DNA from: Promethearchaeota archaeon
Lineage (GTDB): Archaea; Asgardarchaeota; Lokiarchaeia; Sigyniarchaeales; SOKP01
Direction of reading: 5' to 3'
Length of the DNA stretch: 29,894 nt
Assembly: GCA_016840165.1 (NCBI GenBank)
Contig: JAEOSU010000035.1
Span: 1 to 29,894 of the forward strand
Shown: piece by piece, positions 236 through 16,118 of the stretch
How the letters are laid out: each line of letters begins with the position of its first letter
How positions within the stretch are numbered: the first letter of the stretch is position 1
Translations under genes and position numbers: made by a program
The notes under the pieces: generated by a model
What the model was told of the DNA's origin: nothing
What the model saw: only the letters and a program-made list of their open reading frames with translations
Database searches by the model: none

Positions 236-1045
236 TTAACTGGCAATATAGATTCTGCCATTAGTCTCTTTTTTTACGCTATGATCTCCACTATATTCAA
301 TAAATTTGCCTGTTACTTTTTCTCCGTTGGCTAACTCAATCTCAGAGATTTCCCCTACTTTTTTATATGATGGTAATAATCTGGGGGCTTTCCCTTTAAT
401 TATAATTTGGCCCCAAGCTTGGTCTGCACCCGTGTAAAGATTAACATCACCCTCTACGATAATAGTTCCTCCGTGGTTATGCATTCCTAAAAAAGATTCA
501 GCACCACCACATCTTAACATCGGGAACTTTCCCGCTCCTTTTGAGCTTCTAGCCCATAGCATTGATTCTCTGCCAACTTTACCTTTGACTTTTATTATTC
601 CATTTTCCATACCGATCCAAAATCCACGATATGCGGCACCAATATAATTTCCGGCATCGCCAGTTATTTCTAATTCTCCCCCCTTTAACATGGCTCCCGC
701 CCAATCTCCTGCGTTTCCATTGACCGTTATTTTTCCTCCTTTCATTTGATTTCCAATGTGCATCCCTACATTACCATTAATAATGATTTCACCATCTGTC
801 ATTTTCTCCCCTATTCGTTTCACATTAGAAAGGTCTCCCTCAATAGCAATGGTGGTGTTTTTAACATCAGTTGATTTTCCCGAGACATCAAAGAAATCTC
901 CTAAGCTTACAATTTCATTTCCATAGAATAATTCTAACTTTTTAATTTGCGCCGCAGTTTTTCCAGCAAAATTATCAGGCGTTATTACTTCTGCCTCTAA
1001 GGGAAATTGGGGTTGCTTTTTTAATTTTAGTTTTATCTCTGCCAT
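236..1045 (-). CDS. fwdC: Formylmethanofuran dehydrogenase subunit C
   Basis: N-terminal PLEAEVITPDNFAGK, repeated GxxMxGGxIxVxGNAG beta-helix (GXGXG) repeats and C-terminal GD...NGRIYI; 2 bp from fwdB. Confidence 0.95.
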   Translation of the reverse strand: MAEIKLKLKKQPQFPLEAEVITPDNFAGKTAAQIKKLELFYGNEIVSLGDFFDVSGKSTDVKNTTIAIEGDLSNVKRIGEKMTDGEIIINGNVGMHIGNQMKGGKITVNGNAGDWAGAMLKGGELEITGDAGNYIGAAYRGFWIGMENGIIKVKGKVGRESMLWARSSKGAGKFPMLRCGGAESFLGMHNHGGTIIVEGDVNLYTGADQAWGQIIIKGKAPRLLPSYKKVGEISEIELANGEKVTGKFIEYSGDHSVKKETNGRIYIAS

Positions 1046-1047
1046 TC

Positions 1048-2376
1048 TTATTCACCTTTTTTTTCCTTTACTTTTTCAATTAATCGCTCTAAAATTTCTC
1101 GATCTGGTAAAGTTTCTCCAGGAGGATTTTTCACTTTTCTTAACCTTAATGGTACATGATCCATACGATACGCTGTTCCTTCCGTTTCAATACCTGCAAA
1201 CGCTGCAGGCAAAATAATATCTGCATTTACAGAAGTAGGAGTATGATGAGGTTCAATTGAAATTATCGGGTGTTTGAACATATTTTTAACCGCTGCAGCA
1301 GGAAAATTACTCGCAGGATCGGATGCCACGATTAATAATGCGTCAATTTCATCTCTCAATAATACATCAACAGCTGAGAACTCCCCTGGATTATAGCGGG
1401 CGAAGCCACGCGAAAAATCAATCGAATAGGCATACCCGGTGTTCCAGGTAAAGACAGTATTGCTTCCAGTAATGTTATAATGCCCTCGCATAGGTGTTAT
1501 CAAAAATTTTGTATGATCATTAAGTTCTCTGGTCAAACATATAGCTGTATCAATATTCCTATGATGAGAAATAGATTGTGTTAACCCCATACCAAAGAAG
1601 ATTACTCCATAATTACTCTCTTTCATAATGTTTGCTAATTTTATTATATCTTCCTTCGCTACGCCCGCAACTTCTTTTTGATCAATTTCAACTCCTCTTA
1701 AAGTAGCGCGGATGGCATTCATAAGCTCATAATCTTCATTTGGATTTACTTTTACATATAGGTCTGCTATTTGAGCTGTATTAGTGTTTCTTGGGTCGAC
1801 TACGATAATATATCGATCATTACGACCATCTTGTCGAAAATAGCCCCTTACAAAATCACTATAGCGACCCAGATGTCTTGGATGAGCATGAACAGGATTG
1901 CATCCCCAGAAAATGACTAAATCTGCTCGATTCTTATATTCTCCTAAAGTAGAAGTAGGCACTCCTACGTCCTGTTCAGCTAGCAAAGTTGGTCCATGGC
2001 AAACCGATGCTGTATTATCTAATATTCCACCTAAAATCTCTGCTAACTCAACTCCTTTGCTTTGAGCTTCACATTCAGTACTGGCAAACCCATATAGAAG
2101 TGGTCTTTTTGCTTTTACTAAGATATCTGCAGCTTTATCAAGAGCTTCATCCCATGAAATTTCTTTATAGGAACCGTTCTCTCTAATTAACGGAGCCATA
2201 TATCGATGACCACTCGGATTCGAAGAGAAAAATTTTCGCGTCCCAATTTGGCACCCATTCCGAACTTCTATAACTTTTTGCTCTTTTTCATCAACATCAA
2301 TTTCAAGATCATCGCATAATGTCCCACAAAATGGACAAACTACATCATAAAACGTTTTATACTTTTTTTCAACCAT
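1048..2376 (-). CDS. fwdB: Formylmethanofuran dehydrogenase subunit B (Mo/W-bis-PGD catalytic subunit, Cys form)
   Basis: CPFCGTLCDDL...C [4Fe-4S] motif, TASVCHGP metal-ligand motif, NRADLVIFWGCNPVHAHPRH, PMRGHYN and GTAYRMD. Confidence 0.96.
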   Translation of the reverse strand: MVEKKYKTFYDVVCPFCGTLCDDLEIDVDEKEQKVIEVRNGCQIGTRKFFSSNPSGHRYMAPLIRENGSYKEISWDEALDKAADILVKAKRPLLYGFASTECEAQSKGVELAEILGGILDNTASVCHGPTLLAEQDVGVPTSTLGEYKNRADLVIFWGCNPVHAHPRHLGRYSDFVRGYFRQDGRNDRYIIVVDPRNTNTAQIADLYVKVNPNEDYELMNAIRATLRGVEIDQKEVAGVAKEDIIKLANIMKESNYGVIFFGMGLTQSISHHRNIDTAICLTRELNDHTKFLITPMRGHYNITGSNTVFTWNTGYAYSIDFSRGFARYNPGEFSAVDVLLRDEIDALLIVASDPASNFPAAAVKNMFKHPIISIEPHHTPTSVNADIILPAAFAGIETEGTAYRMDHVPLRLRKVKNPPGETLPDREILERLIEKVKEKKGE

Positions 2377-2388
2377 TAATTTCCACCA

Positions 2389-2784
2389 TTAAGCCTCTCT
2401 TAATTTACTTATTAACTGAACTGCATCTAACACTTTCCCATTCGCAACCACTTCTACCTTTGCCTTGATTCCCTTGAACGTTGGTGTTCCCGTAGATTGA
2501 GAGCCTGGATTTACTACTTGGTTAGCCCAGGGACCCATGGGAATGAAAATTATACCTGGATGAGGTCCTTCCTCAGAAATAGTAGAATAGACTAATACCT
2601 CTCCATAATCAGTTGTCACTTTTACTGGAGTGCCAGCGAGACAGTTAAGCTTAATAAAATCATTCCTGTCAAAAGCACATATGCCTGCTGCCCTTACGTT
2701 CTCTCTTGTATTCTTTCCTCCCTCTAATGCTACTCCTTGATTTATAGTCCGTCCTGTTATCAAAATTAAATCATTTAAACTCAT
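2389..2784 (-). CDS. fwdD: Formylmethanofuran dehydrogenase subunit D (molybdopterin-dinucleotide binding)
   Basis: LITGRTINQG, GIIFIPMGPWAN and TGTPTFKG motifs; operon position. Confidence 0.95.
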   Translation of the reverse strand: MSLNDLILITGRTINQGVALEGGKNTRENVRAAGICAFDRNDFIKLNCLAGTPVKVTTDYGEVLVYSTISEEGPHPGIIFIPMGPWANQVVNPGSQSTGTPTFKGIKAKVEVVANGKVLDAVQLISKLREA

Positions 2785-2789
2785 TTTTA

Positions 2790-3509
2790 TTACTCCCCCT
2801 TTTCATTCCATCTTAAGTTTTTTAAACGTTCGGTTAATGGAGGCCAAAACATTTCACTATACTCTCCCGATGTACTTATTTCGATGATCTTTAATTGTAG
2901 TGCGCCCGTTGGGCATGCATTATCGCATGCTCCACATGCTACACATGCATCGGGGTCCGCTACCTCTACATTCTTCGATTTTTCCCAGCCATGTTCAGGT
3001 CGCTTCGCAATTACAATTGTACCTGAAGGGCAAACCTCTGCACATGAACCACATCCTTTTGCACACTCTTCATCGATAATAGAGACTTCCGCTTTCGCGT
3101 ATTGTTTGACAGTTCTTTCAACTCCTTGATTATTTTTGATCTTTTTTGCTTTAAATTCAATTTTAGGCACTACTTTTTGGGCTACTATGGGAATATCATT
3201 TAATTCAATTACTTCTCCATTTTTTTTTAGGGTTAAAGCACTAAAAGGGCACATTACCACACAGGTTCCACAAAACACACATTTCTTTGGATTATAAACC
3301 TCTGGTATAATATCCTCGGTTTCAGGAGACCTACGTGAGGCTCCTACTGGACCACGTGTAATTGCTTCTTTGGGACATACACGTGCACATGTTCCACACC
3401 CCACACATTTTTCACGATTTAAAATGAGTTCTAAACTTTCGGTAAGAAATTGAACTTTAACATGTTCTTCTTGTTCATTTATAGTTCTTGATATTTTTGG
3501 AAATGACAT
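2790..3509 (-). CDS. fwdF: FwdF-like polyferredoxin, short form with four 4Fe-4S binding motifs
   Basis: Four CxxCxxCxxxCP-type motifs (CVGCGTCARVCP, CVFCGTCVVMCP, CAKGCGSCAEVCP, CVACGACDNACP), plus AIxxGPVGA and CPFSALxL segments typical of the FwdF N-terminal half. Confidence 0.8.
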   Translation of the reverse strand: MSFPKISRTINEQEEHVKVQFLTESLELILNREKCVGCGTCARVCPKEAITRGPVGASRRSPETEDIIPEVYNPKKCVFCGTCVVMCPFSALTLKKNGEVIELNDIPIVAQKVVPKIEFKAKKIKNNQGVERTVKQYAKAEVSIIDEECAKGCGSCAEVCPSGTIVIAKRPEHGWEKSKNVEVADPDACVACGACDNACPTGALQLKIIEISTSGEYSEMFWPPLTERLKNLRWNEKGE

Positions 3510-3511
3510 TT

Positions 3512-3769
3512 TTATTCTTCCTCCACAGTTTCTATTCTAATTGCCCGCGCAGGGCAAATTTGGACACAGACTCCACAACCATCGCAATTTACTTCGCGGT
3601 CTTCTTTATAAATGGGATATGCAACTCCATTTCTCACGAGAAGCACGGCATTTTTTTCACTTAAATAGCTATCCTTTCTTAATTGATTAAAATTTAATGG
3701 ACAGCTGACTACACAATCATTACATCCAAAACAACGATTATTATTAACAGTAATTTTGAAAACTCTCAT
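3512..3769 (-). CDS. fwdG: FwdG-like 2x[4Fe-4S] ferredoxin subunit
   Basis: 85 aa with CFGCNDCVVSCPLN...VLLVRNGV...CDGCGVCVQICP; size, spacing and context fit FwdG. Confidence 0.75.
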   Translation of the reverse strand: MRVFKITVNNNRCFGCNDCVVSCPLNFNQLRKDSYLSEKNAVLLVRNGVAYPIYKEDREVNCDGCGVCVQICPARAIRIETVEEE

Positions 3770-3770
3770 T

Positions 3771-4196
3771 TTATTTTGCCTCTTTTTTAATTGGATTAGG
3801 TCCTAATTCTTTTAACTCATGGACAAATTCTTCGACAATTTCTGTTAATTCTGCCCCCTCTGAAGCGGATACATATGTATATTTTACTCTTTTCGGATTG
3901 ATACCAAACTGCTTCAGATATAGGTGTAGCATGGGTAATTTTCGAATAGTTTTATAATTTCCCTCTACATAATGACAATCTCCGGGATGACAATGACTTA
4001 CTAAGACCCCATCAGCACCATTCATGAGAGCGTTTAATATAAAATGAGGTTCGATTCGCCCACCACACATAACTCGCATAATTCTTAGATTAGCGGGTCG
4101 TTGCATGCGTGAAGTCCCAGCTTGGTCAGCTCCAGCATATGTACACCAATTACAACATATCCCTAATATATAAGGATTAAAATCTGTTTTTGTCAT
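3771..4196 (-). CDS. mvhD: Methyl-viologen-reducing hydrogenase delta subunit ([2Fe-2S] adaptor to HdrA), Cys form
   Basis: CCNWCTYAGADQAGTSR, RVMCGGRI, GADGVLVSHCHPGDCHYVEGN and VSASEG motifs. Confidence 0.95.
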   Translation of the reverse strand: MTKTDFNPYILGICCNWCTYAGADQAGTSRMQRPANLRIMRVMCGGRIEPHFILNALMNGADGVLVSHCHPGDCHYVEGNYKTIRKLPMLHLYLKQFGINPKRVKYTYVSASEGAELTEIVEEFVHELKELGPNPIKKEAK

Positions 4197-5217: not shown

Positions 5218-5387
5218 GACTATAAACAAAATTTTTATTTATTCTACTAATGATTAACAGAATTTAACATTCTCTTGTAGAGAATTTGAATTAAAAATTA
5301 TAAGAAATATTTTTAAATATCTCCTATTCCCACTCTCATTAAATTCAATTTAATAATTCATTATTTTTCTCTAATGTGATAAATAAG

Positions 5388-7049
5388 ATGGCACAGGATG
5401 TTTTTACGTTTTTAGTAGGCGGAAAAGCAGGTGAAGGGGTGAAGAAAGCAGGATCTGTTTCCGCTCATATTTTTTCAAGCATGGGACGGCATGTATTCCA
5501 AATGGATGATTATATGTCTCTAATTAGGGGTGGACATAACTTTTCTGTTATAAGTACAACACCTAGATGGATTGGGAGTCATTACATGAAAGCTAATTTA
5601 GTTGTAAATTTTGACAAACGAAGTTGTGATGTTCATAAAAATGACATTACAGAAAATGGTATAATCTTTTTCAATTCAGATGAACAAGATCTTGATCGTG
5701 GTATCGGTATACCTTTGACTTCAGAAGTAGAAAAATATCCTATGAAAAATCTTATGTTTGGAGTGGGTGCTGTAGCGATTTTGGCTGCTGCAATTGGATT
5801 TCAAAAAGAAGAAATGAATAATATAATTAAAGATGAATATCCAAGAGGAATCGAAGATAACATTAGATTCGCAGATACTATTTATGATCTTGTATATCCT
5901 GACTGTGGCAACAAATTTAACTTAGAAAGAGGAGATAAGAAGAGACCAATTATTACGGGTAATGAGGCAATTAGTTTAGGAGCAATAGCAGGTGGATTAG
6001 ATGTTTATTACGGATATCCTATGACTCCAGCATCTTCAATCTTGCATACGCTTGCTCAAGAGGCTGAAAATTTTGGATTAGCTGTAGTTCACCCCGAAAG
6101 TGAAATAACAGTTATAAATATGGCAATAGGATCAGCTTTTACAGGAGCTAGAACCATGGTGGGAACAAGCGGAGGAGGTTTTTCTCTTATGACTGAGGGT
6201 TTCTCTTTAGCGGGTATGACAGAAGCACCAGTATTAATTGTTTTATCTCAGAGACCAGGTCCAGCGACAGGTGTTCCAACTTATACAGAACAAGCTGAAT
6301 TAGCTTTTGCATTAACCGCAGGCCACGGAGACTTTTTAAGAATAGTGGCTTCACCCAGAACCATTAGAGAAGCATATTATCTTACTTCTGAAATGTTAGA
6401 TTTAGTATGGAAATTTCAAACTCCGGGAATATTGCTAACTGAAAAACACCTTTCAGAGAGTAGTATGACAGTTCAAATTGAGGTAGAGAACTCAGGTTGG
6501 GCTGAACCAAAAATTCATAAAGCTGGTGATTATAAACGCTATTTAGATACTGATGATGGTATTTCTCCCTTGTTATTTCCCCCATCAAATCAAGTTATTA
6601 AATGGAATTCTTATGAACATGATGAATTTGGTATTACTACTGAAGATAGTAAGAAAATTTCATTTATGCATGATAAAAGAAACAAAAAGTTAACAAGTCT
6701 CATAGAATATTTAAAAGGGAAAGAAACTGTTAAAATTATTCGAGGAAATCTACCAATCAACATTTTTACTTATGGCTCTACTTATATGAGTGTTTTAGAA
6801 GCAGTTCGATATGGAAACCTAAATCCCACTATTATTGCTCCAATATATTTAAGTCCACTGCCGATTTGGGAATTGAAAGAATTTAAAAGTCAAGACAATG
6901 TTGTTATTGAACAAAGTTCTACAGGACAATTTTCCAAGCTCTTAAGTGAAAAAGCTGGATTAGAAATTAGAACTACAATTAAACAATATAATGGTCGACC
7001 ATTTGATCCAATGGATTTATCGCAAAAAATTAAGGAGGTGCTCGGCTAA
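5388..7049 (+). CDS. korA: 2-oxoacid:ferredoxin oxidoreductase alpha subunit (gamma-alpha fused type)
   Basis: GGKAGEGV, IRGGHNF, ITGNEAI, YPMTPAS, TSGGGFSLMTE and QRPGPATGVPT motifs. Start refined to ATG 5388. Substrate specificity cannot be determined from sequence. Confidence 0.92.
   Translation: MAQDVFTFLVGGKAGEGVKKAGSVSAHIFSSMGRHVFQMDDYMSLIRGGHNFSVISTTPRWIGSHYMKANLVVNFDKRSCDVHKNDITENGIIFFNSDEQDLDRGIGIPLTSEVEKYPMKNLMFGVGAVAILAAAIGFQKEEMNNIIKDEYPRGIEDNIRFADTIYDLVYPDCGNKFNLERGDKKRPIITGNEAISLGAIAGGLDVYYGYPMTPASSILHTLAQEAENFGLAVVHPESEITVINMAIGSAFTGARTMVGTSGGGFSLMTEGFSLAGMTEAPVLIVLSQRPGPATGVPTYTEQAELAFALTAGHGDFLRIVASPRTIREAYYLTSEMLDLVWKFQTPGILLTEKHLSESSMTVQIEVENSGWAEPKIHKAGDYKRYLDTDDGISPLLFPPSNQVIKWNSYEHDEFGITTEDSKKISFMHDKRNKKLTSLIEYLKGKETVKIIRGNLPINIFTYGSTYMSVLEAVRYGNLNPTIIAPIYLSPLPIWELKEFKSQDNVVIEQSSTGQFSKLLSEKAGLEIRTTIKQYNGRPFDPMDLSQKIKEVLG
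7032..7040 (+). promoter_or_regulatory. Strong Shine-Dalgarno sequence AAGGAGGTG for korB
   Basis: Located 10 nt before ATG 7051, inside the 3' end of korA; supports 7051 rather than 6991 as the start. Confidence 0.75.
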
Positions 7050-7050
7050 T

Positions 7051-7890
7051 ATGGCAGATCTTAAAACTAATGCTGAAATTACATGGTGTCCTGGGTGTGG
7101 AAACTTCGGAATCTTTACAGCTATAAGAAAGGCAATCCCTCTACTTGAGGAAAAGGGAATAAAAAGAGAAAATATAGTCATGACAGCGGGTATAGGCTGC
7201 CATGCGAAAATTTTTGATTATCTTAATTTGAGTGGAATTTATGGACTTCATGGTCGAAATTGCTCAAACTCCGAAGGTATTAAAGTTGCGAATCCAGATT
7301 TAAGAGTAATTAACTTCTCTGGAGATGCAAATGGATTAGCAGAAGGCCTTGCCCATACGATGTTTGCAGCAAAAAGAAATCAGGATATAACCTTTATCTT
7401 ACATAATAATAGCGTGTATGCTCTTACAACCGGTCAATTTTCGCCATTAGCAGAAAAAGGGTGGAAAGGACCTTCTACCCCTCGAGGTAGCTATGAAGAA
7501 CCATTTAATCCTATATCTTTAATGATTGAGGCTGGCGCAACTTTCGTAGCAAGAGGATTTTCGGGAGATATTGAGAATCTCACTAATCTTATAATAGAGG
7601 CAGTTAAACACAAAGGTTTCGCTTTTATAGAAGTCTTGCAACCTGCTGTTCCATACCATAAGTGGGAAGAATATAGAGAGCAAGTTGAATATCTTGAAAA
7701 AGAGCCAAAAAGTTATTTTGAAGCTATTAAAGCAGCTAAAGAAAACCATAAGTTTACAATTGGGATATTTTATAGAACTACAAAACCAGTATATCATAAA
7801 GAGTTATATGGAGATCATAACCCAATTACTAATAGATTGGCAAGAGATACGAGATTAGATAAAATTCGAAAAATTCTTGAATCTAAATAA
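7051..7890 (+). CDS. korB: 2-oxoacid:ferredoxin oxidoreductase beta subunit (TPP-binding)
   Basis: TWCPGCGNFG, GIGC, LHGR, GDA...NNxVYALTxGQxSP and GATFVARG motifs; starts 1 nt after the korA stop. Confidence 0.92.
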   Translation: MADLKTNAEITWCPGCGNFGIFTAIRKAIPLLEEKGIKRENIVMTAGIGCHAKIFDYLNLSGIYGLHGRNCSNSEGIKVANPDLRVINFSGDANGLAEGLAHTMFAAKRNQDITFILHNNSVYALTTGQFSPLAEKGWKGPSTPRGSYEEPFNPISLMIEAGATFVARGFSGDIENLTNLIIEAVKHKGFAFIEVLQPAVPYHKWEEYREQVEYLEKEPKSYFEAIKAAKENHKFTIGIFYRTTKPVYHKELYGDHNPITNRLARDTRLDKIRKILESK

Positions 7891-13257: not shown

Positions 13258-14544
13258 ATGAAAGATTTGAGAGAAAAATTAAAAATACCGGACAAAGCAA
13301 TCAAATCAATTAACGAATTTATTTTAGATGGTAAGAATCCCTTGATCAATGAACTTATGGAATTGATCGAAAAATATGGTGGCGTGGAAGAAATTAATCG
13401 GAAAGCAGAAGAAGCAGGTAAGCTTGATAATCTGATGCAAAGACTTGAGAAAAAGCAGCCAAGTTATGTGAAAGATCTTGAATGGTTGATAAAGCAACGA
13501 GATGATCATAAATTTATTAGTGTAGCTGATTATCGACGCAAAATTTTAGGCGATAAAGTTGAACATATGAAATTTAATGAAGACTTCGCTGTCACGTTAG
13601 AACTCTCAGCCTGCCAGTATTTTCCGTTCTTCATTGATATAGCAAGAGATGCGATTGAAACCCAACAATTAGTTCCAGGGAGAATAATTCGAGTCCGAAA
13701 GATGAAAGAACAAGAGGAAGATGGAGATTTGCTTGCTATGGCAGCAGCGATGCAAATTATCGGAGTTAGCTGGGTAGAAACGCTTGATACCAAAGGTACT
13801 ACCCCCGGACCAGATGGAATGCCTGTAAATGTGCATCTTGGTGGTCCCGAAACAATTACTGGATATTTTGGGGGAGTAGGACAACCTAATGACTTTGCGC
13901 TAAAGTGGATTGACGAATATTTATATTATTATACAAATTATGGAATAAAGCAAGTCCTCAATGTGAATCCAGGCACAGTTTTACTTGGATATTTCATTCA
14001 TAAGTTGGGGATAAATAATGAATTTAAAATAAGTGTTTACATGGGTAATGATAATCCCTATGCATGCTTATGGACGTTATTAACTGCGAAATTATTTGCA
14101 CGAGAAGATGGAACAAGTCCTCTCATTGGTTTTAATTTAGCCAATTCTGTTAACAATCAAACAATTGAACTTTCTGCCTATATTCGAAAGAAATTTGGCT
14201 TTGAAGACGTAGTTCGCCTTGAGCATCATATCGTAGAGACTTGGAAATCAATAGTTAGACAACCCTATGATCGAAGGGACGACTTAATCGAGTTAGCTAA
14301 AAAAGTAAAAAATGTAAGTGCAAAACATGAAGGTGGCGATGTTGAGGTAGAAAAGACTCGAGAACACCCATCTGATATATTGGAATACTTTATGACGAAA
14401 GAAGAAATTAAGAATCAAGGATTATGGGAATATCATCGGATAACTCATTTAGATAGATATAGAGCAGTGAATTCCACCGCAAAAGCATTAACCAAAAATG
14501 GATTAGCATTTATCGCTGCTCGAAAATTACATCACATAAAATAA
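13258..14544 (+). CDS. Uncharacterised 428-aa soluble protein, probably an enzyme, co-transcribed with the aldolase-Fae fusion
   Basis: Long ORF with normal protein composition and enzyme-like Gly/His/Asp-rich segments (ETLDTKG, NVHLGGPETITGYFGGVGQPN, RLEHHI, SAKHEGG, HPSDIL). No family confidently recognised. Confidence 0.85.
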   Translation: MKDLREKLKIPDKAIKSINEFILDGKNPLINELMELIEKYGGVEEINRKAEEAGKLDNLMQRLEKKQPSYVKDLEWLIKQRDDHKFISVADYRRKILGDKVEHMKFNEDFAVTLELSACQYFPFFIDIARDAIETQQLVPGRIIRVRKMKEQEEDGDLLAMAAAMQIIGVSWVETLDTKGTTPGPDGMPVNVHLGGPETITGYFGGVGQPNDFALKWIDEYLYYYTNYGIKQVLNVNPGTVLLGYFIHKLGINNEFKISVYMGNDNPYACLWTLLTAKLFAREDGTSPLIGFNLANSVNNQTIELSAYIRKKFGFEDVVRLEHHIVETWKSIVRQPYDRRDDLIELAKKVKNVSAKHEGGDVEVEKTREHPSDILEYFMTKEEIKNQGLWEYHRITHLDRYRAVNSTAKALTKNGLAFIAARKLHHIK

Positions 14545-14562
14545 AAAAGTAAGGTGAAATGA

Positions 14563-16050
14563 ATGGGAAAGTTTGATTTTAGACTTAAAGGTGTTTCCGT
14601 TGCGATGGTGACACCGTTTAATGAAGATGAGTCAATTAACGAAGACCAACTTAGAAATCTTGTTAATTTTCTTATTGATAAAGGGGTAAATGGACTGGTT
14701 CCCGTTGGTACTACCGGAGAATTTGTCAATATGACCTTTGAAGAACGATTAAGAGTTATTGAAGTCGTTATTGACGAAGCCAAGGGTCGAGTGCCAGTTA
14801 TTGCGGGTACTGGTGAATCTGGAACAAAAATGGTCATAGATGCCACAAATGCAGCAACAGATTTAGGTGCTGATGCGGTATTAATAGTCACACCCTATTA
14901 TCTTAAGCCAAAAGCCAAGGGACTATATGATCATTATTATTATATTTGTAAAAATACTGATATTCCTATTATTATGTACAATATTCCCGTCTGTACAGGA
15001 ATAGAATTGCCATGGACGGTTGTAGAAGATCTTGTGGATATTGAAAATATAGTTGGGATTAAAGATTCGAGTGGTGATTATAAATATTTTTCAGCTCTAT
15101 TAGAAAAAGTAAGCGATAAGATATCGGTATTAATCGGATGGGATGAAAATGTGCTCGGTGCATTGGCAGGGGGAGCTGCAGGATGCATATTAGGTTCTGC
15201 AAATGTCATTCCTCGATTTTGGCTGGAAATATATGATCATGTAAAAAATAATCGACTTAAAGAGGCTCAAGAAACTCAAAAAAAAGTACAAAAAATAGCA
15301 CGAATGTTAATAAACTCAGGAGCTTTAGGAGCAAAAGAATGTTTAAATATAATGGGAGTGCCTGTTGGCATCACCCGTCGGCCAATAATACTTGGAGATT
15401 CTCTTTCGTATGAATTACGAGATGAATTTAGGGTCGAGCTTGAAAAATTGGGTCTAATTGAAAAGAAAGAAGTTAAATTCGAAATTGGAGAGAAGGAATT
15501 AACTAGCAGATTTTATGCGGTGGGTGTTACACCCGAAAAAATCACTGATTTTAAGCTAAAAGTAGGTGAATCGCTTGTGGGAAATCGAGCAGAACTAGCT
15601 CATATTGACCTTTTAATTGGTGATAAAAATGGACCTGTAGGAGAGGCCTATGCGAAAGCGTTAACCCATCCTGCGAAAGGAAGAGAAGGTCTACAGGTGA
15701 TATTAGAACCAAATATGCAAGTTAAGCCTCCTACCGTTATGATTCCGACCGTAAAAATATCTTCCTTGCGTCATGCAAGCTTAACTTATGGACCTGCACA
15801 AGCAGCCATCGCTAAAGCAGTTGTTCAATGCGTCGAAGATGGAATTCTACCAAAAGAAATGGCAGAAGAGATTGTTCTTATCGTCAATGTGTTTGTACAC
15901 CCTAGTGCTAGTGCGAGAAAAAGGGTATTTATTAATAATTATAAAGCTACTCGAAACGCGATTCGAAAAGCAATGGAAGGGTTGCCCACCATAGAAGATA
16001 ATATCCGGAATGCAGAAAATGCTCGTCATCCTTTACGGAATGATCCATAA
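14563..16050 (+). CDS. Fusion of a DapA/NanA-family class I aldolase (aa ~1-300) and formaldehyde-activating enzyme Fae (aa ~332-495)
   Basis: N-terminal VTPF, GTTGE, TPYY, YNIP and Schiff-base GIKDSSG motifs. C-terminal VGESLVG..ELAHIDLLIG, PN..VKPPT, GPAQAAIAKAV, VFVHP, NYKAT..AI..A and HP motifs of Fae. RBS AAGGTGA upstream. Confidence 0.92.
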   Translation: MGKFDFRLKGVSVAMVTPFNEDESINEDQLRNLVNFLIDKGVNGLVPVGTTGEFVNMTFEERLRVIEVVIDEAKGRVPVIAGTGESGTKMVIDATNAATDLGADAVLIVTPYYLKPKAKGLYDHYYYICKNTDIPIIMYNIPVCTGIELPWTVVEDLVDIENIVGIKDSSGDYKYFSALLEKVSDKISVLIGWDENVLGALAGGAAGCILGSANVIPRFWLEIYDHVKNNRLKEAQETQKKVQKIARMLINSGALGAKECLNIMGVPVGITRRPIILGDSLSYELRDEFRVELEKLGLIEKKEVKFEIGEKELTSRFYAVGVTPEKITDFKLKVGESLVGNRAELAHIDLLIGDKNGPVGEAYAKALTHPAKGREGLQVILEPNMQVKPPTVMIPTVKISSLRHASLTYGPAQAAIAKAVVQCVEDGILPKEMAEEIVLIVNVFVHPSASARKRVFINNYKATRNAIRKAMEGLPTIEDNIRNAENARHPLRNDP

Positions 16051-16118
16051 GGATGATTTATAATAAAATATATTTCTAATACAAATTTTTCTTTTTCTTT
16101 ATCTATTAATGGAACATC

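Follow-up and report, generated by a model that had tools for sequence, protein, structure and literature searches.

The archaeal Fae-Hps proteins (NF009833) are fusions in which the formaldehyde-activating enzyme Fae is joined to Hps, a formaldehyde-handling aldolase of the orotidine-5'-monophosphate decarboxylase fold that uses ribulose 5-phosphate as the nucleophile. They are the closest known system to a gene found on contig JAEOSU010000035.1 of a Promethearchaeota archaeon (assembly GCA_016840165.1). Positions 1 to 29,894 of the forward strand of this contig were analyzed, and this whole stretch of 29,894 nucleotides is referred to as the window. The gene, called the DHDPS-Fae fusion in the following, joins Fae to a class I aldolase of the dihydrodipicolinate synthase (DHDPS) family. 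Both systems combine Fae with an aldolase-type enzyme that has formaldehyde as its aldehyde, known in the one case and predicted in the other, and the Fae part of the fusion matches the Fae-Hps model with an E-value of 4e-46. They differ in the aldolase partner, in the order of the domains, which is reversed with Fae at the C-terminus of the fusion, and in the nucleophile, which is predicted to be pyruvate. DHDPS-Fae proteins constitute a widespread, unstudied enzyme family, which probably transfers one-carbon (C1) units from a pterin carrier to pyruvate or back, in the vicinity of homoserine metabolism.

Two further systems invite comparison. The 4-hydroxy-2-oxobutanoate (HOB) aldolases of the engineered homoserine cycle, such as the promiscuous class II pyruvate aldolases of Escherichia coli, catalyze the same reaction as predicted for the fusion, with transamination to homoserine as the adjoining step. 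There the reaction is a side activity of unrelated or unfused proteins that use free formaldehyde, whereas the DHDPS-Fae protein would be a class I enzyme dedicated to this reaction and equipped with a domain for pterin coupling. To our knowledge, no natural pathway is built on the interconversion of HOB with pyruvate and formaldehyde, and no natural enzyme dedicated to joining the two compounds has been described. PanB is similar in outline, as C3 of a 2-oxo acid receives a hydroxymethyl unit from a methylene-pterin, but it is a single metal-dependent barrel with neither a Schiff base nor a Fae domain. A literature search returned no paper in which Fae is paired with DapA/DHDPS and none on a natural HOB aldolase of such a kind, in agreement with the statement in a preliminary description of this DNA, made from the sequence alone, that no characterized enzyme with this architecture was known to its author. 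The joining of pyruvate and formaldehyde is used in engineered C1-assimilation routes, and Fae-Hps alone is mentioned in an Asgard paper.

The DHDPS-Fae gene is an uninterrupted single open reading frame (ORF) with the following parts:

14563-16050, + strand: whole DHDPS-Fae fusion gene, 495 amino acids (aa) plus stop codon
14584-15429, + strand: class I pyruvate aldolase domain derived from DapA, covering aa 8-289, with Schiff-base K167, Y139, Y113 and T50/T51
14584-15429, + strand: acceptor-site changes within the same aldolase domain, namely F54, L114, C144 and W193-D194-E195
15430-15561, + strand: interdomain linker, aa 290-333, partly conserved (RFY..G.TP..I.DF)
15562-16035, + strand: Fae domain, aa 334-491, in which AHIDL (His347/Asp349) and YGPAQ are both intact

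Both domains were recognized over their full length and above the curated cut-offs. Pfam assigned aa 8-289 to DHDPS (E-value 7e-77) and aa 334-491 to Fae (E-value 7e-56, 189 bits against a cut-off of 27, profile positions 1-158 of 159), and the NCBIfam model one_C_fae (TIGR03126) scored 188 bits against a cut-off of 118. This bears out the proposal in the preliminary description of one 495-aa ORF composed of a complete aldolase barrel and a complete Fae domain; the start of the latter, expected at about nucleotide 15560, was placed by Pfam at 15562. The catalytic residues named there (T50/T51, Y113, Y139, K167 and H347 of AHIDL) could all be recovered by alignment. The aldolase part was aligned with DapA of E. 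coli K-12 (L011:83-961, minus strand) and with the canonical DapA of the own genome, and T50/T51, Y113, Y139 and K167 correspond to T44/T45, Y107, Y133 and K161 of the E. coli enzyme. The Fae part aligned end to end with the solved Fae of M. extorquens (1Y5Y, E-value 1.7e-29), and H347 and D349 sit in a motif matched to the AHIDL of that protein, whose His and Asp we take to be the catalytic residues of Fae. The catalytic and acceptor-site residues of both domains, C144, W193 and F54 included, are invariant in 120 clusters (90% identity) of the same architecture. From these motifs, the Fae domain of the fusion looks catalytic.

The family closest to the fusion by sequence is DapA (TIGR00674; E. 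coli 1DHP), the 4-hydroxy-tetrahydrodipicolinate synthase of lysine biosynthesis. The fold, the Schiff-base Lys, the Tyr-Thr-Tyr residues and the GTTGE pyruvate-binding loop are common to both, whereas the acceptor site is not. Arg138 of DapA, which binds the carboxylate of aspartate semialdehyde, is replaced by Cys144 (YNVPSRTG versus YNIPVCTG), GDD has become GWDE, TTGES has become TTGEF and YYNRP has become YYLKP; in the alignment with the E. coli enzyme, Ser48 and Asn111 are exchanged for Phe and Leu, respectively. The first two of these exchanges had already been pointed out in the preliminary description and are confirmed by this alignment. Its claim that the protein does not belong to the lysine pathway holds as well, since the acceptor Arg is absent both here and in 15 of 15 diverse family members that were aligned. 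In addition, the C-terminal Fae domain sets the fusion apart from DapA, the identity of its aldolase part to true DapAs amounts to 32-33% only, and it is not linked to dapB, its neighbors being a gene for a 428-aa protein (X428) and unrelated genes. The separate, Arg-containing dapA predicted for this organism was found together with dapB on another contig of the own genome: a canonical dapA (YNVPGRTG, SGDD) at C89:1696-2610 lies directly upstream of dapB at C89:860-1669.

These differences make it very improbable that the fusion is a genuine 4-hydroxy-tetrahydrodipicolinate synthase merely carrying an extra Fae domain. Such a reading could draw on the score with the NCBIfam dapA equivalog TIGR00674 (237 bits against a cut-off of 206), on the best PDB sequence matches, which are all DapA, and on the sources that label fusion proteins as 4-hydroxy-tetrahydrodipicolinate synthase. 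The above-threshold score with TIGR00674, however, explains the database label and is outweighed by the missing Arg. The GDD motif, too, is missing in each aligned family member. Other specific models did not apply either: the scores with the NanA equivalogs stayed below the cut-offs (188 bits versus 281 for NF003164 and 168 bits versus 382 for TIGR00683), and the match to the Fae-Hps model is restricted to the Fae part (positions 2-161 of 392, 158 bits versus a cut-off of 274). Because the acceptor Arg is missing and a separate Arg-containing dapA resides beside dapB, the fusion is, judged by sequence, a different pyruvate-type aldolase that is mislabelled as DapA in databases.

An alignment of the 15 diverse members from Asgard archaea, Bathyarchaeia and Chloroflexi defined a family signature. 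K167, Y139, TTGEF and Gly-x-Asp-Glu (with H, W, F or Y as x) are kept throughout, while the position of DapA Arg138 is occupied by Cys, Val or Leu and never by Arg. The Cys of the window is thus not a family-wide catalytic residue, and the shared trait is the loss of Arg. Two fusion genes are arranged in tandem in the Asgard families f10 and f31, in Chloroflexi and on one metagenomic contig:

L016:4608-7519: tandem DHDPS-Fae pair
L022:5303-8191: tandem DHDPS-Fae pair
L032:8072-11486: tandem DHDPS-Fae pair
L034:8070-11001: tandem DHDPS-Fae pair

In the first copy of these pairs (470-478 aa), the Fae His/Asp is lost and replaced by Ile-Ser, Ser-Ala, Gln-Asp or Gln-Phe. In the second copy, His-Asp is kept and the PAQ motif is changed to HAL, WAT, HAM or VAQ. 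All seven of the aligned single-copy fusions, that of the window included, keep both motifs. The complementary pattern of loss suggests hetero-oligomers with shared active sites, given that Fae reportedly binds tetrahydromethanopterin (H4MPT) between the subunits of a homopentamer. It likewise suggests continued selection on Fae catalysis at an interface active site.

The fusion is not an assembly artefact, as it is present across Asgard archaea, Bathyarchaeia and Chloroflexi. The best 120 clusters of a protein search all have the same architecture, with 81-97% identity and the label '4-hydroxy-tetrahydrodipicolinate synthase', and the organism names among them include Promethearchaeota, Hodarchaeota and Thorarchaeota. 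In a phylum survey of 400 Asgard genomes from 33 families, in which Mch served as a marker for the H4MPT pathway, the full-length fusion was detected in 10 families (f1, f3 with one genome, f9, f10, f18, f19, f26, f28, f31 and f32) at 42-86% identity; within f1, genera g1, g2, g4, g8, g12 and g13 carry it in part. Mch occurs in 23 of the 33 families. All 10 fusion families are among these 23 and none is among the 10 Mch-negative families, a co-occurrence with a hypergeometric P of ~0.012 that was calculated by hand with families taken as independent and is therefore rough. The Asgard distribution of the fusion fits H4MPT dependence. In the own family, the fusion was absent from the Mch-positive genera g5, g6, g7 and g11 (22 genomes searched), which marks it as an accessory gene. 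The same architecture was found in a Bathyarchaeia genome with Mch and in Chloroflexi/Anaerolineae. Two single genomes may be added as observations. The Chloroflexi genome G400 (L032) carries two DHDPS-Fae genes together with fam3, a second barrel gene described below, and their neighbors encode transaldolase/FSA, aldehyde:ferredoxin oxidoreductase (AOR), a class II aldolase and an FGGY kinase. G143 of family f3, a single 4.3-Mb contig, gave a match to RFAP synthase (287 bits) and none to Mch, and may make a methanopterin-like cofactor without the usual C1 pathway marker.

The gene directly upstream of the fusion encodes X428, an Asgard-restricted protein of no known family. The arrangement around the fusion is as follows:

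13258-14544, + strand: X428, 428 aa, helical at the N-terminus (about aa 1-103) and followed by a TIM barrel (about aa 112-420)
14545-14562, + strand: intergenic gap between X428 and the fusion, 18 nt, with AAGGTGA 5 nt before the ATG
16086-16100, + strand: T-rich tract past the stop codon of the fusion, judged from the sequence a possible archaeal transcription stop

The short gap with its AAGGTGA suggests co-transcription and coupled translation of the two genes. A promoter/terminator scan, whose sigma-70/intrinsic-terminator models are unsuited to an archaeon and whose counts were at background, gave no terminator-like site between them on the + strand. On four other contigs, in f18 and in G132, X428 likewise directly precedes the fusion (L006-L009, L019 and G132), and its identity across the phylum is 64-82%. 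About five near-full-length clusters at 50% identity were obtained among the 150 matches listed from 1.8 billion representatives, and no match to X428 was found in Pfam, NCBIfam or the PDB sequences. An AlphaFold2 model based on a more divergent alignment reached a pLDDT of 89 and a pTM of 0.89; a model built with 16 close sequences only (pLDDT 51) was unusable and was discarded. Searches with the good model retrieved class II fructose bisphosphate aldolases from the PDB by Foldseek (TM 0.3-0.45, E-value about 5e-4), a flat list with Z about 12 in a wide VIA-align search and U32-like clusters in the Atlas (TM 0.55/0.70-0.75). As these are generic TIM-barrel matches only, no family was assigned to X428. 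The Atlas feature search for X428 yielded nothing useful (best score 0.79), and a complex prediction of the fusion with X428 scored 0.00, which gives no verdict either way.

In other lineages, the place of X428 is taken by fam3, a 310-316-aa protein (typically 315 aa) that belongs to no Pfam or NCBIfam family. It was located at these sites:

L017:7734-8681, - strand: fam3, no Pfam/NCBIfam family
L022:4340-5287, + strand: fam3, no Pfam/NCBIfam family
L032:7001-7951, + strand: fam3, no Pfam/NCBIfam family
L036:8001-8948, + strand: fam3, no Pfam/NCBIfam family

The fam3 gene is directly upstream of the fusion in f10, f19 and f32 and nearby on the opposite strand in f9. With 65-70% identity between Asgard archaea, Bathyarchaeia and Chloroflexi, it is found ahead of the single or paired fusion genes in all three groups. 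By language-model features, fam3 matches U32-like bacterial clusters at 0.98. A profile-profile comparison of X428 and fam3 was colinear over 181-214 columns with matching strand motifs (E-value 1.3-1.6e-3, probability 16-19%), a weak match from which the two may be homologous. They look like functional equivalents.

Genomes that lack the fusion indicate what the barrels might do. A class I aminotransferase gene comes after X428 in f16 (L012), in f13 (L013) and in genome G138 of f3 (L030), and the three encoded enzymes share 56-58% identity. The series at L012 runs from X428 through aminotransferase, homoserine dehydrogenase and AOR to a second aminotransferase, and at L036 homoserine dehydrogenase comes closely behind fam3, with AOR next. 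Mch was not found in G033, G067, G138 and G402, four fusion-free genomes with these barrel arrangements, the last of which is the L036 genome. Their gene context suggests that the enzymes beside the barrel connect a 2-oxo acid with homoserine, aspartate semialdehyde and aspartate. Since the barrel stands beside either the fusion, which is predicted to cleave a 2-oxo acid, or aminotransferase and homoserine dehydrogenase, HOB, the oxo acid of homoserine, is the simplest metabolite that could be shared. A divergent, unfused DHDPS-like gene of 348 aa was noticed directly upstream of X428 in G135 (L031:5778-6824, + strand), a genome without Mch; the protein keeps the Lys in MKDSSG and has the LPQIT motif found in the fusion family.

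The host genome (3.6 Mb, 99.7% complete) contains strong matches to panB (372 bits) and asd (374 bits), and homoserine dehydrogenase is likewise present. With dapA and dapB also in place, no obvious biosynthetic role is vacant, and the host does not depend on the fusion to make lysine, pantoate or homoserine. Mch (351 bits) and RFAP synthase (307 bits) were detected together with a separate Fae-Hps fusion (C27:43534-44823), from which it follows that H4MPT-linked C1 chemistry is present in the host. A further DHDPS-like domain (68 bits) forms the N-terminus of a 690-aa ORF of the same genome (C43:23495-25567, + strand; L003). The position of the Schiff-base Lys is taken by Ile there (GLIDDFEN), and this aldolase domain, to which an unidentified C-terminal part is attached, looks catalytically dead.

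The function that we favor, for which the chances seem to us about even, is that HOB is split reversibly into pyruvate and formaldehyde and that Fae couples the formaldehyde to H4MPT, in analogy to Fae-Hps. The aldolase domain descends from DapA and has retained the full pyruvate Schiff-base machinery, with hydrophobic or aromatic residues replacing those that hold aspartate semialdehyde. It would interconvert HOB with pyruvate and formaldehyde, the Fae domain would interconvert formaldehyde and H4MPT with methylene-H4MPT, and free formaldehyde would never be released. The logic would be that of archaeal Fae-Hps with pyruvate in place of ribulose 5-phosphate. The setting would be a two-gene accessory module with X428 upstream, or with fam3 instead in other lineages. 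The barrel is probably a producer or consumer of this C4 2-oxo acid, because it is paired elsewhere with aminotransferase, homoserine dehydrogenase and AOR. We lean towards a catabolic direction, with the C1 unit entering the H4MPT branch and pyruvate being converted into acetyl-CoA, because the homoserine, lysine and pantoate routes are complete in the host and sister genera do without the module. The cleavage of HOB to pyruvate and formaldehyde was one of two options in the preliminary description. It gains indirect support from the homoserine-related neighbors of the barrel, a support that does not extend to the substrate and the direction. The complete picture, in which fusion and barrel would form a natural pterin-coupled HOB pathway without free formaldehyde and the barrel would represent a new enzyme family that makes or consumes HOB, appears improbable to us as a whole.

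The same reaction could run in the anabolic direction. Methylene-H4MPT from the methyl branch of the Wood-Ljungdahl pathway would then supply the formaldehyde that is joined with pyruvate to HOB, from which transamination would lead to homoserine and on to threonine and methionine, much as in the engineered homoserine cycle but in nature. In principle the reaction can run both ways, aminotransferase and homoserine dehydrogenase are associated with the barrel partner, and the fusion is confined to Mch-positive families within Asgard archaea. We nevertheless consider this direction unlikely, as asd and homoserine dehydrogenase complete the canonical route in the host and a module that is missing from the 22 genomes of g5, g6, g7 and g11 cannot be an essential route to homoserine. 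The architecture would suit any reaction in which a pterin and C3 of a 2-oxo acid exchange a hydroxymethyl group, and the hydrophobic pocket predicted from F54, L114, C144 and W193 could hold alkyl substituents. Formaldehyde might therefore be joined with a 3-substituted 2-oxo acid, such as 2-oxoisovalerate to give ketopantoate as in PanB, 2-oxobutanoate or hydroxypyruvate. With panB present in the host, an accessory module and a gene context that points to homoserine rather than pantoate, there is little to recommend these nucleophiles. The replacement of PanB, which was the second option of the preliminary description, is disfavored by the strength of the panB match and by the absence of the module from whole sister genera. 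We also know of no characterized DHDPS-family enzyme that uses a 2-oxo acid other than pyruvate, and of no precedent for a tertiary C3 enamine among these enzymes.

It is also conceivable that the aldolase domain uses another aldehyde or acts as a dehydratase or deaminase, like certain other members of the DHDPS family, and that Fae works on another carbonyl or pterin or is retained mainly as an oligomerization scaffold. The recurrence of AOR genes nearby could mean a different aldehyde, one copy of each tandem pair has lost the Fae His/Asp, and neither Mch nor RFAP synthase was found in the fusion-bearing Chloroflexi genome G400 (L032), which is of unknown completeness. The Fae catalytic motif, on the other hand, is strictly conserved in all single-copy genes, the losses in the tandem pairs are complementary rather than random, and the fusion is nested within Mch-positive Asgard families. 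These alternatives are doubtful in our view.

Several of these observations also weigh against the pterin-coupled cleavage of HOB. In view of G400, the pterin partner may not be H4MPT everywhere, or the Fae domains of Chloroflexi may have another role. Formaldehyde is inferred as the aldehyde partner solely from the fusion to Fae and from the analogy with Fae-Hps, and the small acceptor pocket is an idea derived from residues in an alignment. X428 is no obligate partner: the fusion occurs without X428 in f9, f10, f19 and f26 and at the f32 locus (one genome), X428 occurs without the fusion in f13 and f16, and in f31 the two are on different contigs or at distant sites. Only at L012 and L036 was homoserine dehydrogenase seen beside the barrel. 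These genomes are rich in AOR genes, with nine tblastn matches in the own genome, and some of their adjacency is possibly due to chance.

The remainder of the window carries three other clusters and a pair of paralogues:

236-4196, - strand: formylmethanofuran-dehydrogenase-like cluster (GXGXG, molybdopterin oxidoreductase, Fer4) and an MvhD/FlpD gene
5376-7890, + strand: two-subunit 2-oxoacid:ferredoxin oxidoreductase, whose position relative to the fusion is kept in the close relative L006
20748-22064 and 22909-24207, - strand: paralogous genes of ~435 aa that flank a 209-aa gene; a CDP-alcohol phosphatidyltransferase occupies the corresponding position in L006
24384-27971, - strand: HdrA- and HdrB-like genes, followed by a third ORF

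If the proposed function is true, the DHDPS-Fae family would give archaea and bacteria of sediments a further connection from the Wood-Ljungdahl/H4MPT branch to C3/C4 metabolism. It would correct the widespread DapA label on many clusters and change metabolic reconstructions of Asgard archaea. As a conserved barrel without a family, X428 is a target for the discovery of a new enzyme activity. Should the pathway operate in the assimilatory direction, it would represent a natural homoserine-cycle step by which Asgard archaea, Bathyarchaeia and Chloroflexi incorporate Wood-Ljungdahl C1 units into C4 amino acids.

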